Shown here in pieces: positions 49,857 through 54,811 of a stretch of 64,000 nucleotides of DNA. The DNA is taken from the NCBI GenBank assembly GCA_964396025.1, contig CAYNBT010000002.1:37030-101029 (forward strand). The letters are read 5' to 3'. Each line of letters opens with the position of its first letter. Position 1 is the stretch's first letter. Both the position numbers and the translations under genes were made by a program. The notes beneath the pieces are model-generated. The model was given only the letters and a program-made list of their open reading frames with translations. It had not been told where the DNA came from and did not search any database. The DNA is from an uncultured Candidatus Saccharibacteria bacterium (GTDB lineage: Bacteria; Patescibacteriota; WWE3; UBA101185; UBA10185).

Positions 49857-49946
49857 ATCTTAAAGTTTGGCAGGAGAGTACTGCGACTATAGTATTAAAA
49901 ACTATGTTTTGCAAGATTAAATCAGCTCGCCTATAATAGCAGTGTT

Positions 49947-50387
49947 ATGTTAAATCTGCTCAAGGACATGAACTCCAAAGCCGATTCCTACTACGCGGGC
50001 TTAAAAGAAGAAAAAAAGTCTCACTACTTTTACATGTTCCTTTTTGGAACTTTTATATGTTTTATACTCTTTGGTTTGGTATTGGGCTACTTAACTGGTC
50101 CACAGCTCAATGATGAAGATATGAATCAGCCGGCTTTTAATCAACCAGAAGAAAAGTATTATGAAGGTAGAATATCCTATGTTGACCCCATGCGTTATCC
50201 AGGTCAAAATGTCTCATATATCTTAGTCGATCCTAATGGAAAGTTACTGTTTTTGCTTAAAGCTCAGGATCAAAAGCTTGTTGTAGCCGAAGGTCATTGG
50301 GGCAAATTGTACGGGGATATTTCCAAGTCACCTACAGGAGAAGATATACTTACAGTTGAAAGGGTTGTACTGAAGCAATCAAACTAA
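49947..50387 (+). CDS. Hypothetical membrane-anchored protein.
   Basis: It is an ORF with an N-terminal TM segment (FYMFLFGTFICFILFGLVLGYL) and lies immediately upstream of ftsE. Confidence 0.4.
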   Translation: MLNLLKDMNSKADSYYAGLKEEKKSHYFYMFLFGTFICFILFGLVLGYLTGPQLNDEDMNQPAFNQPEEKYYEGRISYVDPMRYPGQNVSYILVDPNGKLLFLLKAQDQKLVVAEGHWGKLYGDISKSPTGEDILTVERVVLKQSN

Positions 50388-50388
50388 T

Positions 50389-51075
50389 ATGAGTCAAATC
50401 AACTTTAATCAAGTTAGCAAAGAGTATGCCAACAGTGTAAAAGCACTAGATGGTGTTTCTTTTACTGTTGAACCAGGCGAGTTTATTTTTTTGATCGGAC
50501 CGTCTGGCGCAGGAAAATCCACTCTCATTAAAATGCTTATCAGAGAAGAGGTGCCTTCTGATGGAGTTGTCCTTCTTAACGATCAAAATGTAGCTGACGT
50601 ACCTTTAAGTGCTATACCGGATCTTCGTCGCAGAGTGGGCGTTGTGTTTCAGGATTTCAAAGTTTTAAAATCAAAGAGTGTTTTTGAAAATGTGGCAATC
50701 GCTCTAGATGTTGTAGATACGCCAGATGTGGAGATAAAGGAGATAGTACCTAACGTTCTAAATCTCGTGGGACTTTTTGACAAAATGGAAAGCTTCCCTT
50801 CACAACTTTCCGGGGGAGAATTGCAGCGACTTTCCATTGCGCGTGCATTTGCACATGAGCCAGACATTTTGGTTGCAGATGAACCTACCGGGATGATTGA
50901 TCCGCTTGCGACTTTGGAGGTTTTAGATATTCTGGAGAAAATAAATGCCTTGGGTACAACTGTTTTAATGTCCACACATGATCAGCATATTGTAGACAGA
51001 ATGAAAAAACGAGTTATTAAATTGGAAAAAGGGCAGTTGGTTTGGGACAAACAAGGAGGAAAATATCATGGATAA
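50389..51075 (+). CDS. ftsE: Cell division ATP-binding protein FtsE.
   Basis: It has an ABC ATPase with Walker A GPSGAGKST, signature LSGGELQR and Walker B ILVADEP. It is followed by ftsX. Confidence 0.85.
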   Translation: MSQINFNQVSKEYANSVKALDGVSFTVEPGEFIFLIGPSGAGKSTLIKMLIREEVPSDGVVLLNDQNVADVPLSAIPDLRRRVGVVFQDFKVLKSKSVFENVAIALDVVDTPDVEIKEIVPNVLNLVGLFDKMESFPSQLSGGELQRLSIARAFAHEPDILVADEPTGMIDPLATLEVLDILEKINALGTTVLMSTHDQHIVDRMKKRVIKLEKGQLVWDKQGGKYHG

Positions 51076-51961
51076 AGTGTTAAAGAATATTTCCATACTT
51101 CTGAAAAGAGAAAGATTGTTAGTAGTTACAAATATCTTGGTTATCACTCTCACATTCCTTATAATGGGATCCTTTATAACCATTTTTACCCTAACTCAAA
51201 CAGTACTGCGTAGACTTGAAGATCAAGCTCAGATTACGGTCTTTTTTAAAGACGACTTTCCCGCGAAGAATATATTGGCATTACAAAATAGTCTCAAAAA
51301 AGATGAACGTGTACTCGATGTTACTTATGTTTCAAAAGAGGCTGCGTTTAAAATTTTTACTGACTTAAACAAAAATGAACCAGTTCTACTAGAATCCCTA
51401 ACAGCAAGTATCTTGCCTGCTAGTTTGGAAATCAGAGCCACAAAGGTAGGGGATTTGGCTGCCCTTGCAGGCGAATTGGGAAAAAAGGATGGCGTGGAAG
51501 AGGTAAAATTCTTTAGAGATGTTATCGAGAATTTTCGACGAATAGGTTTGGTGATAAATATTGTAGGTGCTGTTTTGGTTGTGGCTTTTTTGATTATTTC
51601 TTTTGCGGTTATCACTGTGGCATTAAGGATGACCATTAATTCTAAGGGCACAGAGTTAGAAATTCTAAAGTTGGTGGGGGCCTCCGATAACTATGTACAG
51701 TATCCGTTGATAGTGCAGGGAGTTTTCTATTGTTTAGTATCTTCTGTTTTGGCTACTATAATTCTAGTACCTTCTCTATTAGTTCTGCTTTCGTCTTCTG
51801 CTATTGCGGATTCAGGACTGGTCATGTTCAGTTTTGTCCCGGGTCTAAAAATCAATGTTTATGTGTACATCGCTTTGCTTTTTGTACTCCTAAACCTAGT
51901 TGGTATAATCCTAGGCTATTTTGGCAGTAAGAACGCCATTAAAAAGTATCTTAAATACTAG
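51068..51961 (+). CDS. ftsX: Cell division permease-like protein FtsX.
   Basis: It has four TM segments and a large first extracytoplasmic loop. It overlaps the ftsE stop by 8 nt. Confidence 0.8.
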   Translation: MDKVLKNISILLKRERLLVVTNILVITLTFLIMGSFITIFTLTQTVLRRLEDQAQITVFFKDDFPAKNILALQNSLKKDERVLDVTYVSKEAAFKIFTDLNKNEPVLLESLTASILPASLEIRATKVGDLAALAGELGKKDGVEEVKFFRDVIENFRRIGLVINIVGAVLVVAFLIISFAVITVALRMTINSKGTELEILKLVGASDNYVQYPLIVQGVFYCLVSSVLATIILVPSLLVLLSSSAIADSGLVMFSFVPGLKINVYVYIALLFVLLNLVGIILGYFGSKNAIKKYLKY

Positions 51962-51969
51962 TTACATTT

Positions 51970-53184
51970 ATGAGATTAAGGACAGTAATCGTATTTTCAC
52001 TAATAACCTTAGTTGTCTTTTCTGCAGCTCCTGCGGTGTTGGCGCATTACATGCCCTTTGGTGGTACAGAAGAAGATACTCCAGCACCTGATGAGGAATT
52101 GGAAAGCAAAATCGAAGATTTACAAGAAAAGATAGAAGAATATGAAAAGAAGATTGGAAAACTGGAAAAGCAGGAACAGAGCCTTTCAAAAGATATTGAA
52201 TACGCCAACAGTCAGATTAGCATTTTGGAATTAAAAGTTCAGTCTGTGCTAGCCCAAATTGAGCAAAAAACCTCACAAATAGGTAGATTAGGTAATGACA
52301 TTGAAAAACTTAGGAATCGTATTGAACGCCTAGGAGAATCAATTGATTACCAGCAGGACGTTTTGTCTGAACGCATGCGTACACGCTACAAAGTATACGA
52401 TAGTTCGCCTCTAGTAGTTCTTTTGGGAGGTACTACACTCAACAATTTGGTGCAAAAAACCAAATATCTAAAATCAATGGAAATTCAAGACACAAAATTG
52501 GTAAAAGAAATGAAAAGGACAAAAGAAGATTTTAGTCTTCAAAAAACCTTGTTTGAGCAAAAAAAGGCTCAAGCGGAAGATCTGAAGGCACAGATCGAGC
52601 AAGAAAAAAACAACTTAGTAAGTTATCAGAATGAACTTGAGCGCCAAAAGAAGGATAAGGAAGAATTACTTAGAAAAACCGAGAATGACGAAAACAAATA
52701 TCAGCAGCTTCTTGCTCAAGTAAAGTCAGAGCTAGCTGCCTTGCAACTTGCCATTGATTTGCCTTCCGGTGATGGCGAAGAGGTTGAGGAAGGGGATGTA
52801 ATTGGTTTCATGGGTAATACAGGGTGTTCTTCAGGACCACATTTGCACTTTGGGTATGTTAAAGATGGCCGTTCTAGGGATCCTCTTCCTGAGTTAAATA
52901 AAGGTAATCTGAAGTGGCCGGTTTCCAACTGGCAAATAACACAATACTTTGGTGAAAACTACTCCTTTTATATGAACAATTTTGGAATTCCCGGGCACGA
53001 CGCACTGGACATTGTGAGCAGTTCTCAATGGTCAGGTGCACCGGTGAAAGCAGCTAAGGATGGGGTGCTGTATTATGCACAGGATGCCAAAGTTTACTGC
53101 CCTGGGCTAAACAACTCCATCGGTAAGGGAGCGATTATTGATCACGGAGACAATGAGCGAACAATCTATTGGCATCTTCAGTAA
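51970..53184 (+). CDS. Coiled-coil M23 (LytM) peptidase whose catalytic motifs are in permuted order (EnvC/PcsB-like partner of FtsEX).
   Basis: A signal/TM segment and about 240 aa of coiled-coil are followed by GFMGNTGCSSGPHLHFG (the HxH segment) BEFORE GIPGHDALDIV...AAKDGVLYY...IIDHGDNERTIYWHLQ (the HxxxD segment). The protein then ends. This is the reverse of the canonical M23 order. Confidence 0.7.
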   Translation: MRLRTVIVFSLITLVVFSAAPAVLAHYMPFGGTEEDTPAPDEELESKIEDLQEKIEEYEKKIGKLEKQEQSLSKDIEYANSQISILELKVQSVLAQIEQKTSQIGRLGNDIEKLRNRIERLGESIDYQQDVLSERMRTRYKVYDSSPLVVLLGGTTLNNLVQKTKYLKSMEIQDTKLVKEMKRTKEDFSLQKTLFEQKKAQAEDLKAQIEQEKNNLVSYQNELERQKKDKEELLRKTENDENKYQQLLAQVKSELAALQLAIDLPSGDGEEVEEGDVIGFMGNTGCSSGPHLHFGYVKDGRSRDPLPELNKGNLKWPVSNWQITQYFGENYSFYMNNFGIPGHDALDIVSSSQWSGAPVKAAKDGVLYYAQDAKVYCPGLNNSIGKGAIIDHGDNERTIYWHLQ

Positions 53185-53245: not shown

Positions 53246-53728
53246 ATGTGCAACAAAATAATACAAACAGTAGTGATGTTTGTGGTTTTTATACGCGTGT
53301 TTTTGAATTGTCCTGAAGTGGATGCTAAGGAATCAACTCCTTCCGTCAAGTTGGAAACACACTTGTTGGGCGAATCAAGGGAAGTTAATCTACTTTTAGA
53401 TTCAGAGGATTCGTTTAGAGTACGTCCAAATGCTACAGTGGGAGGCATGCAGGTATGGGATTCTAGAATGCAGCGCTGGGTAGAAAATGTCGGTTTGTGG
53501 TCACAGTTGCCTCAAGTTTCGGGCAGCATCAAAATGCGTTTTAGCAAATCAGGCTTTCCAAAAAAGATTTTCAATCTAATTTTCCAAGATCCTATTACAG
53601 CTAAACTTTATTATTCCCCTCAGTACACGGTTTGGAGTGCCTACTATGTACAAAATTATCTGAGTTCGTTAAACAGTAACCTAGATGAGCAAAACGAATC
53701 TTCGGCTAGTAAAGTATGGGGATGGTAG
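53246..53728 (+). CDS. Hypothetical secreted protein.
   Basis: It has an N-terminal signal-like hydrophobic segment (IIQTVVMFVVFIRVFL). I do not recognise a family. Confidence 0.4.
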   Translation: MCNKIIQTVVMFVVFIRVFLNCPEVDAKESTPSVKLETHLLGESREVNLLLDSEDSFRVRPNATVGGMQVWDSRMQRWVENVGLWSQLPQVSGSIKMRFSKSGFPKKIFNLIFQDPITAKLYYSPQYTVWSAYYVQNYLSSLNSNLDEQNESSASKVWGW

Positions 53729-53737
53729 AATTGGTGG

Positions 53738-54109
53738 ATGCAGGTTTTAAAAAGATGGCTTCCATCTATACTAATGTGCACACTTATTTTTGTGTCTTCA
53801 TCCTTGCCCGGTGCCTCTGTGTCCGGAAACGGAGATGTAGATTACTCAGCTCACAAATTTGCGCATACAGTAGTGTTTTCTCTGTTATGCTTCACTTTCT
53901 ACAGGGCCACCAAAAACCCTGCAGGTGCAGCTGCTTTAACATCCTTGTATGGGGTTTTGGATGAGTTTCATCAGACGTTTGTCTTGACACGATCAGGTAA
54001 TATAATTGATGTAGCTGTGGATACGTCCGCAGCAGTTGTAACTGCCGTTGTTTTATGGAAATACTTTCACTTTCTGCCGAACAAACTCAAGATTTGGCTA
54101 AACGAATAG
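53738..54109 (+). CDS. VanZ-like membrane protein.
   Basis: FAHTVVFSLLCFTFYRA...YGVLDEFHQTFVLTRSGNIIDVAVDT is the VanZ family signature. Confidence 0.6.
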   Translation: MQVLKRWLPSILMCTLIFVSSSLPGASVSGNGDVDYSAHKFAHTVVFSLLCFTFYRATKNPAGAAALTSLYGVLDEFHQTFVLTRSGNIIDVAVDTSAAVVTAVVLWKYFHFLPNKLKIWLNE

Positions 54110-54498
54110 CTTCTAGGCTGGTTCCGGGCGATGTTTTGGCGTTATATGGGGATCTAGGGGCTGGTAAAACCACTTTTACTAACTTCTTAGTGCAGGGTTT
54201 GAATATAAACGCAAGAGTTCAGAGTCCGACCTTTGTAATTGCGCGTTGCTATCAAGGGAACGGTATGAATGGGATTTGTAAGGTACATCATGCGGATTTA
54301 TATAGACTAGCTAATGAAGTGGAACTTGCTGATTTGGGCATACACGAGCTTTTTGGCGAGTCAGATTCTATACTCGTGGTAGAGTGGCCCGAGTTTCTTG
54401 AGCAACAACTGCCTGCAAATACAATAAAAATTAGATTTACACTTTTGGAAGATGGAAACCGAAAAATATATGTGGAAAATACAAATAGATTCAACTAA
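54055..54498 (+). CDS. tsaE: tRNA threonylcarbamoyladenosine biosynthesis protein TsaE.
   Basis: LYGDLGAGKTTFTNFL...SPTFVIARCY...HADLYRL...VVEWPE are the TsaE motifs. The N-terminus overlaps the 3' end of vanZ by 55 nt. Confidence 0.75.
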   Translation: MEILSLSAEQTQDLAKRIASRLVPGDVLALYGDLGAGKTTFTNFLVQGLNINARVQSPTFVIARCYQGNGMNGICKVHHADLYRLANEVELADLGIHELFGESDSILVVEWPEFLEQQLPANTIKIRFTLLEDGNRKIYVENTNRFN

Positions 54499-54811
54499 AA
54501 GACGTGAGGCGATCGTTGCTCTTTTTAAGGTTACAGGCGGTATAGAAACGTTGGTGGCTTCCAAGGAGGGTGATCTAGATATTGTATCTGCAATCAAGGA
54601 ACTCCTTACAGAGAATAATCTGAAGTTAGCTGATGTTTCTGAAGTTAAGCCTGTTTTGGGTCCTGGCTCATACACCGGTCTCAGAAATGGCGTAACAGTT
54701 GCTAACACGCTTAGTTGGGCATTAGGAAAAAAAGAGTTGAAAGATTTGGACGTTCCTTTGTATGGATCAGAACCCAATATAAGTGAACGCAAGGAAAAAT
54801 CTCTAAATTAA
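54470..54811 (+). CDS. tsaB: TsaB-like protein, N-terminal domain only (about 114 aa).
   Basis: MWKIQIDSTKRREAIVAL...GPGSYTGLRNGVTVANTLSWAL matches the TsaB N-terminal domain. The C-terminal half is absent. Confidence 0.55.
   Translation: MWKIQIDSTKRREAIVALFKVTGGIETLVASKEGDLDIVSAIKELLTENNLKLADVSEVKPVLGPGSYTGLRNGVTVANTLSWALGKKELKDLDVPLYGSEPNISERKEKSLN

Follow-up and report, generated by a model that had tools for sequence, protein, structure and literature searches.

The Gene and Its Motifs

In contig CAYNBT010000002.1 of an uncultured Candidatus Saccharibacteria bacterium, we analyzed a stretch of 64,000 nucleotides (hereafter the window), in which one gene directly downstream of ftsE and ftsX encodes a secreted coiled-coil protein that ends in a domain of the M23 (LytM) peptidase family. 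An earlier note, made from the letters of the DNA, had described this gene as an FtsEX-associated M23 peptidase with its catalytic motifs in reversed order. The peptides quoted there are found at the places given for them, and the open reading frame (ORF) has exactly the ends assigned to it, its start lying 8 nt past the ftsX stop codon (Table 1). The placement directly 3' of ftsE-ftsX also holds: the two upstream genes match the Pfam families ABC_tran and FtsX_ECD/FtsX, and the linkage is conserved (see below).

The segment GEEVEEGDVIGFMGNTGCSSGPHLHF (amino acids 269–294), or GEEVEEGDVIGFMGNTGCSSGPHLHFG when extended to residue 295, carries the HxH motif with H291 (nt 52840-52842) and H293 (nt 52846-52848). 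It is followed by DPLPEL (304–309), WPVSNW (316–321), and GHDALD (342–347), the last within a GIPGHDALDIV segment that contains H343 and D347. The C-terminus reads ...IIDHGDNERTIYWHLQ and includes H392 and H402; its final residues are YWHLQ (400–404), so that the protein ends 2 amino acids past the catalytic His. The order along the chain is HxH (291–293), HxxxD (343–347), and His402. All metal-ligand motifs claimed for the protein can thus be read from its sequence (H343, D347, H291, H293, H402). The coiled coil that precedes them, and its likeness to EnvC and PcsB, are confirmed, but its length is about 220 amino acids by the helices of an AlphaFold2 (AF2) model, not the 240 or so first proposed. 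At the N-terminus the model has a helix (2–18) and then disorder (24–36), and at the other end of the hairpin the last helix leads straight into the V..G..IG..GNTG.S.GPHLHF segment that bears HxH.

Table 1. Features of the permuted M23 gene and of the genes upstream of it (positions in the window; aa, amino acids)
Feature	Amino acids	Position	Strand	Remarks
Whole gene, secreted coiled-coil protein with circularly permuted M23 domain	1-404	51970..53184	+	404 aa plus stop; ATG start
Signal-peptide-like N-terminus	1-25	51970..52044	+	MRLR, hydrophobic stretch, then AVLA/HY; cleavage (at the slash) inferred
Antiparallel coiled-coil hairpin	40-262	52087..52755	+	Helices 40-67, 72-143, 157-262; tip 144-156; DSSP of AF2 model
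Half that is C-terminal in canonical M23	263-309	52756..52896	+	V..G..IG..GNTG.S.GPHLHF...DP..L; Pfam profile 59-96; 6jmx_A 206-251
Short linker NKGNLK, old C-terminus to old N-terminus	310-315	52897..52914	+	Separates the two profile matches
Half that is N-terminal in canonical M23	316-404	52915..53181	+	WP...ITQ.FG...H343xxxD347...IDH392G...YWH402LQ; Pfam profile 3-53; 6jmx_A 147-198
ftsX (extracellular and permease domains)		51068..51961	+	FtsX_ECD E 2.1e-17; FtsX E 2.1e-9
ftsE (ABC ATPase)		50389..51075	+	ABC_tran E 2.4e-34; overlaps ftsX by 8 nt
146-aa protein, one hydrophobic segment	1-146	49947..50387	+	Matches no Pfam family; 1 nt between its end and ftsE
Promoter-like site TTGCAA-17-TATAAT		49908..49937	+	Just 5' of first gene of putative four-gene operon

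Evidence for a Circular Permutation

Few peptidoglycan hydrolases have been studied as much as the M23/LytM family (lysostaphin, LytM, the EnvC and NlpD activators, phage lysins), which is defined by an ordered pair of motifs. Does the protein in the window belong to it? The Pfam profile PF01551 (Peptidase_M23) matches with 59 bits (E 5e-16; cutoff 28.7), and the match is split into two stretches, the better of which aligns amino acids 268–305 to profile positions 59–96 of 96. When the pieces are searched separately, the upstream one scores 40.5 bits (E 3e-10) against positions 59–96, and the downstream one scores 26.2 bits (E 9e-6) against positions 3–53. The two matches are independent of each other and cover disjoint parts of the profile, so that the reversed order lies far beyond chance. 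The phmmer alignment to PDB chain 6jmx_A, an M23 peptidase of Campylobacter jejuni, has the same form: residues 269–314 correspond to 206–251 of the chain, and residues 341–403 to 147–198.

We then un-permuted the domain in silico, cutting it at the linker and rejoining the halves in canonical order. The rejoined domain gives a single Pfam match over positions 3–96 of 96 with 75 bits, compared with 62.8 bits in two stretches for the native order. The best PDB E-value improves from 1.4e-7 to 1.1e-13, and the number of matched PDB sequences rises from 19 to 39, adding lysostaphin, LytM, zoocin A, ShyA, and the LytM domains of EnvC. The Pfam halves, the 6jmx_A alignment, and the un-permutation all agree with the order given in the earlier note (HxH, then HxxxD, then the end of the protein). 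The split, order-swapped matches and the effect of rejoining show that, at the level of sequence, the M23 domain is a circular permutant in which the old C-terminal third is followed by a linker of 6 amino acids and the old N-terminal two-thirds.

The individual motifs are those of the family. The zinc-ligand motif H(x)nD that defines M23 (PMC9662197) is present as H343-D-A-L-D347, and HxH as H291-L-H293. The additional catalytic His, equivalent to His260 of LytM, is H402, since YWHLQ aligns to YYHL of 6jmx. Because of the permutation it is placed 111 amino acids behind HxH; the canonical spacing, with this His about 30 amino acids before HxH, is regained after un-permutation. What the protein lacks is the canonical linear order H(x)nD...His...HxH. 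Having the profile and the motifs without that order, it is a homologue and topological variant of M23 and not a canonical member. The permutation also accounts for the weak or fragmentary M23 matches that profile tools give for these proteins of the candidate phyla radiation (CPR).

Conservation among Relatives

A search of 5.8 billion proteins returned 170 matches, and in about 105 of the 120 listed, HxH precedes HxxxD and the chain closes with YWHLQ or something very similar. Further relatives were collected by an exhaustive HMMER scan with the domain and by a second word-indexed search seeded by a divergent member, which together added a second large permuted subgroup ending in ...TLYGHMID. 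Of 384 distinct cluster representatives collected in these ways, 214 have the permuted order; these 214 come from the ENA, JGI, NCBI, and Logan collections, and identities to the window protein range from 95% down to about 25%. The concern that orthologs might show the canonical order was therefore not borne out when the relatives were aligned.

H291, H293, P317, D347, and H402 are invariant in the permuted relatives (214/214), while H392 is found in 211 and H343 in 197 of them. The chain ends exactly 2 amino acids past the catalytic His in 154 of the 214 and after 3 in another 44; in an alignment of 90 sequences, 88 terminate in YWHLQ. Of five intervals measured over the 214 relatives, three share the variation in length, and P317–D347 varies most (18–73 amino acids). 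The interval H293–P317, which holds the linker, has the second-widest range (21–60; D347–H392, 32–53), and insertions fall between HLHF and WP in the 90-sequence alignment, as expected for a loop that joins former termini.

In one permuted subgroup (proteins P0105–P0115 and P0120), ...EHQGNAIDL... replaces HxxxD. The motif is then H(x)5D, with the His six residues before the Asp and Gly at the usual His column, and HxH and the catalytic His are kept.

All named sources of permuted relatives are Patescibacteria/CPR (WWE3, Berkelbacteria, Woesebacteria, “Patescibacteria group”). This breadth is read from source names, since the related-locus search, which used 26 closer sequences, gave close relatives only, and a few automatically labeled metagenome-assembled genomes (MAGs) among the relatives bear inconsistent names. 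Pipeline annotations of the relatives are generic: “EnvC family” or “DD-metalloendopeptidase family.”

Predicted Structure

Structure prediction had been proposed at the outset as a check on the permutation. The AF2 model of the domain (amino acids 255–404) is a single compact domain with a predicted local distance difference test score (pLDDT) of 92.1 and a predicted template modeling score (pTM) of 0.88, and the conserved M23 blocks land on predicted strands or on a helix in permuted order. In the full-length model (mean pLDDT 82.6), the helices of the hairpin are followed by this beta-rich domain.

The full-length model resembles known FtsEX partners. The best Foldseek matches in the PDB are Vibrio cholerae EnvC bound to FtsEX (8tzl_E), Escherichia coli EnvC (6tpi_A), PcsB (4cgk), and the N-terminal domain of RipA. 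In sequence, the NCBIfam EnvC model matches amino acids 46–256 (E 3e-9), i.e., the coiled coil only, with 36 bits where the cutoff is 270, and Pfam CC_PcsB matches amino acids 118–187 (E 3e-5) at the hairpin tip. The least confident helical segments of the AF2 model are 41–70 and 241–270; in the model these two would pair, which recalls the unpaired N-terminal heptads and the restraining arm of EnvC.

Proposed Function and Mechanism

FtsEX grips the hairpin of its coiled-coil partners through the extracellular domains of FtsX, and the ATP cycle of FtsE frees an autoinhibited C-terminal domain; in EnvC the freed part is a LytM domain that has degenerated and serves to activate amidases, whereas PcsB, CwlO, and RipC carry the hydrolase there (PMC7668044, PMC11627006). 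The window protein has the features of this class: a secreted hairpin, a C-terminal hydrolase(-like) domain, and linkage to ftsEX, the last common but not universal in the class.

We consider it probable that the product of this gene is the cell-wall hydrolase that partners FtsEX in a Patescibacteria (CPR) bacterium, an active endopeptidase with a permuted M23 domain that is gated by FtsEX. The two segments would come together as a single M23 barrel-sandwich of the ordinary kind whose site is intact; there H343, D347, and H293 would bind zinc and H291 and H402 would activate water. The tip of the coiled coil would bind the extracellular domains of FtsX, and autoinhibition would be lifted through mechanotransmission driven by ATP turnover in FtsE, as in EnvC, PcsB, CwlO, and RipC. 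Because its catalytic set is intact, the protein itself would be the hydrolase, combining the logic of PcsB, CwlO, and RipC with an EnvC-like body. It would act as a peptidoglycan endopeptidase rather than as a degenerate amidase activator of the EnvC type, and would cut the peptide cross-links of septal peptidoglycan at division.

Several points weigh against this proposal. The activity, the binding to FtsX, and the autoinhibition are all carried over from homologous systems. One divergent permuted member (P0259) is not near ftsEX, and 17 of the 214 permuted relatives have no His at the H343 column, some having H(x)5D instead. The AF2 model contains no separate restraining-arm helix; helix 157–262 runs directly into the domain. 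Finally, the domain-only model finds no M23 structure in the PDB with Foldseek (best E-value 0.43). We read this last result as a consequence of 3Di alignment being order dependent, since domains of the same order from viruses do match over their full length: three predicted viral structures align over 155–157 columns with TMq 0.51–0.54 and probability 1.00. From this we infer that Foldseek may hide canonical M23 domains from the model and find only domains of the same topology.

Could the permuted domain instead be a regulator that cuts no peptidoglycan and acts through a separate amidase that it binds and activates, in the way that E. coli EnvC uses AmiA and AmiB? In its architecture and its top structural matches the protein points to EnvC, and relatives are annotated as “murein hydrolase activator EnvC family protein” or “septal ring factor EnvC.” However, the LytM domain of EnvC has lost its catalytic residues (PMC7668044, PMC9662197), whereas H291, H293, D347, and H402 are retained here in every permuted relative and H343 in most, and purifying selection of this kind, acting on residues for metal binding and catalysis, would not be expected in a pure scaffold. 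The NCBIfam EnvC match, far below its cutoff, is moreover confined to the coiled coil. We regard the amidase-activator role as unlikely.

We give less weight again to the idea that a single chain does not fold its halves into one M23 domain, the halves being either separate modules or complementing each other only between molecules, in a domain-swapped dimer. PcsB does crystallize as a self-inhibited dimer (PMC11627006), and the model of the window protein remains unmatched to canonical M23 structures. But the AF2 monomer of residues 255–404 is compact and confident (pTM 0.88, pLDDT 92), the linker is short and its length variation is tolerated, and the viral domains of the same order align across the full 150 amino acids, all of which makes separate halves quite improbable.

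A reversed order seen in one sequence is suspicious a priori: this contig might have been rearranged locally, its assembly or a frameshift might be at fault, or the gene might be decaying here only. We found no support for any of these. They are refuted by conserved synteny and by cluster representatives from four collections that share both the motif order and the C-terminal end, and we reject them as having virtually no chance of being correct. The remnant of a second domain downstream was likewise considered and rejected: there is no M23 signal past the stop codon, and the next ORF has no Pfam match.

For the proposed FtsEX-gated hydrolase, the permutation has a consequence for the geometry of gating. 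In canonical M23 domains, the V..G..IG hairpin comes right behind the catalytic-His strand. Given this adjacency, the permutation would set the junction of coiled coil and domain (amino acids 262–270) and the free C-terminus (Q404) side by side near the active site. On the model, the end of the last helix may plausibly gate the active site directly.

It is tempting to go further and to see the permutation as an adaptive rewiring of allostery rather than a neutral accident, with the permuted M23 fold perhaps forming an unrecognized lineage that includes virion proteins of cyanophages (P60 gp33, S-TIM5) with altered ligands. The chain break after the catalytic-His strand would fuse the last coiled-coil helix to the active-site beta-hairpin, the free C-terminus would be strictly placed 2 residues from the catalytic His, and mechanotransmission by FtsEX would gate catalysis directly, without a restraining arm of the EnvC style. 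We offer this broader idea tentatively and think it rather unlikely as a whole.

The viral Foldseek matches are to cyanophage virion proteins: P60 L0CQF1, S-TIM5 H6WFX6, and A0A510E7V3_3. In gp33 of Synechococcus phage P60 (locus L025:22777-25779), amino acids from about 860 to 1000, at the C-terminus, read GYGSTGPHLDV...GSFGVDFATP...RRYAFVHGTVPNA up to the stop. This is the order [C-half][N-half] with altered ligands, and the chain, ending in YAFVHGTVPNA, stops just past the YxH strand. Against P60 gp33, a profile hidden Markov model (HMM) of the 214 permuted domains gives a collinear but insignificant match of 1 bit, and Pfam detects no M23 domain in it; with the family HMM insignificant and Pfam blank, the phage link is one drawn by Foldseek. 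A tblastn search of phage genomes found only the C-half motif, in tape-measure proteins of Staphylococcus phages, and no permuted homologue by sequence.

Comparison with Known Systems

Among the closest known counterparts is EnvC of E. coli, V. cholerae, and Pseudomonas aeruginosa (PDB 6TPI, 8TZL, 8I6O). Like the window protein, it is secreted, places a coiled-coil hairpin before a domain of the M23/LytM family, and has FtsEX as partner. Unlike the window protein, EnvC keeps the halves of its LytM domain in canonical order; the domain has no catalytic residues and serves to activate amidases, and EnvC has a separate restraining-arm helix of 50 residues (PMC7668044). Because it retains the catalytic residues, the window protein is not an EnvC in the strict sense. 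In the logic we propose, it resembles PcsB of Streptococcus pneumoniae, CwlO of Bacillus subtilis, and RipC of Mycobacterium tuberculosis, which are autoinhibited coiled-coil hydrolases under FtsEX control, although their catalytic domains are cysteine peptidases of the CHAP or NlpC/P60 type and not zinc-dependent M23 domains. By analogy with these proteins, we place it functionally among the coiled-coil hydrolases that FtsEX controls.

Canonical M23B peptidases (LytM, lysostaphin, C. jejuni 6JMX, ShyA, Csd3) share both homologous halves, the H(x)nD and HxH motifs, and the additional catalytic His. In them, however, the halves are not swapped, whereas the chain of the window protein breaks just past the catalytic-His strand. 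A parallel case of unpermuted proteins is found in Bacilli- and Mycoplasma-labeled MAGs, where two loci (L017:2999-4195 and L020:2984-4198) have ftsE-ftsX followed by a canonical-order M23 protein with several Cys pairs, and two more (L018, L019) show the same ftsE-ftsX-M23 pattern by tblastn. The proteins of the first two loci, and those of Paenibacillus and other genomes annotated as “EnvC family” (P0332–P0382), have a signal peptide, a coiled coil, the complete catalytic motifs, and a near-identical IGYMGNTGCSTG.HLH segment, but their N-to-C order is canonical and a linker of about 60 amino acids separates coiled coil and domain. The L017/L020-type proteins are likely the unpermuted counterparts of the ftsEX-M23 module. 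To our knowledge, no FtsEX-linked active M23 partner has been characterized in these lineages.

Has such a permutation been seen before? The earlier note knew of no description, and our searches of the full-text literature (subscription-only papers lay outside them) likewise found none of a permuted M23/LytM domain. A dedicated review of 2022, in which about 90,000 M23 domains were analyzed, does not contain the stem “permut” (PMC9662197). Permutation has been noted among distantly related barrel-sandwich domains and not within M23 (PMC11515920). In the searchable full-text literature, the only permutation described for a peptidoglycan hydrolase is that of NlpC/P60, with circularly permuted families such as YaeF/poxvirus G6R and the LRAT-like proteins (Anantharaman and Aravind 2003, as reported in PMC6403190). 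As far as that report goes, these also are natural permutations within a peptidoglycan-peptidase superfamily in which the catalytic residues are swapped in sequence order, but the fold is another one, with Cys/His catalysis, and not M23. We could thus not find a conserved M23 permutation described, and it appears to be new.

A natural and strongly conserved permutation would show that the M23 fold tolerates a new chain connectivity, and it points to a likely septal hydrolase for a very large, mostly uncultured bacterial radiation. By shifting the attachment point of the putative FtsEX-binding coiled coil to a place beside the catalytic-His strand, it would amount to a natural experiment on how mechanical signals from FtsEX reach the active site of a hydrolase. 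The permuted domain might also serve as an engineering template for permuted or split enzymes of the lysostaphin type.

Origin of the Permutation

How could the order have been reversed? The permutation most likely arose once, by tandem duplication of an M23 domain and subsequent loss of the outer halves, N1-[C1-N2]-C2. Tandem M23 proteins (N-C-N-C) do exist in the databases (P0135, P0139, P0144, P0145, P0151, P0168, P0184, P0198). In two of them, P0139 and P0151, the permuted domain aligns over its whole length, collinearly, with the middle part, C1-N2; both complete domains are kept. By their sequences, these two proteins fit the classical route of duplication followed by truncation and are plausible evolutionary intermediates.

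We built a neighbor-joining tree from the un-permuted cores of 214 permuted and 98 canonical sequences (114 columns). On the full data the two groups are separated exactly, but the exact bipartition recurs in only 1 of 100 bootstraps, which is weak support for a single event; one origin is for this reason compatible with the data and not established by them.

Gene Neighborhood

The order ftsE-ftsX-permuted M23 is found in the window and in related loci (L001, L002, L004, L007–L016), with M23 identities from 64% down to 25%. A further locus (L003) is a 3-kb contig with the same protein as L002, in which only the end of ftsX precedes the M23 gene. By tblastn, ftsE of the window shares 44–69% identity with its positional counterparts in related loci. 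A wider synteny, YceG - BFN-domain gene - unassigned gene - ftsE - ftsX - M23 - unassigned gene - VanZ - TsaE - TsaB, is kept in at least L002 and partly in L001. By comparison, the canonical-order coiled-coil M23 protein of Paceibacteria-type genomes (P0118) is encoded elsewhere, after mraY-ftsW-murG.

In the window the M23 gene comes last in a tightly spaced row, behind the gene for the 146-amino-acid protein, ftsE, and ftsX, and this protein may belong to the ftsEX-M23 unit as its fourth member. By tblastn, the 146-amino-acid protein is found directly 5' of ftsE in L001, L002, L007, L008, and L009 (31–37% identity), and unannotated genes for 146–149 amino acids occupy its position in the annotated loci of relatives. 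The promoter-like site of Table 1 lies just upstream of this gene. A promoter and terminator scan of the region stayed at chance level; such sites are no commoner there than by chance, so that only the position of this one is suggestive. An Rfam scan of the window gave no match.

In a divergent permuted subgroup (P0265, tail ...TLYAHMR; loci L023/L024:4001-8212), the arrangement is prfB - permuted M23 - ftsE - ftsX - 368-amino-acid CHAP-domain protein - S41 peptidase. The permuted M23 gene here lies upstream of ftsE-ftsX, and FtsEX is flanked by two different candidate hydrolases.

Directly 3' of the M23 gene in the window (53246-53728, plus strand) is a gene for a 160-amino-acid protein with a signal-like N-terminus and no Pfam match. 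It is weakly conserved in place in L001/L008, one genome reached twice (25% identity), and L002 has unannotated genes of similar size at its position. Beyond it, VanZ-like, TsaE-like, and short TsaB/TsaD-family ORFs (53738-54811, plus strand) overlap one another by 47–55 nt, a compact arrangement that is also found in L001 and L002.

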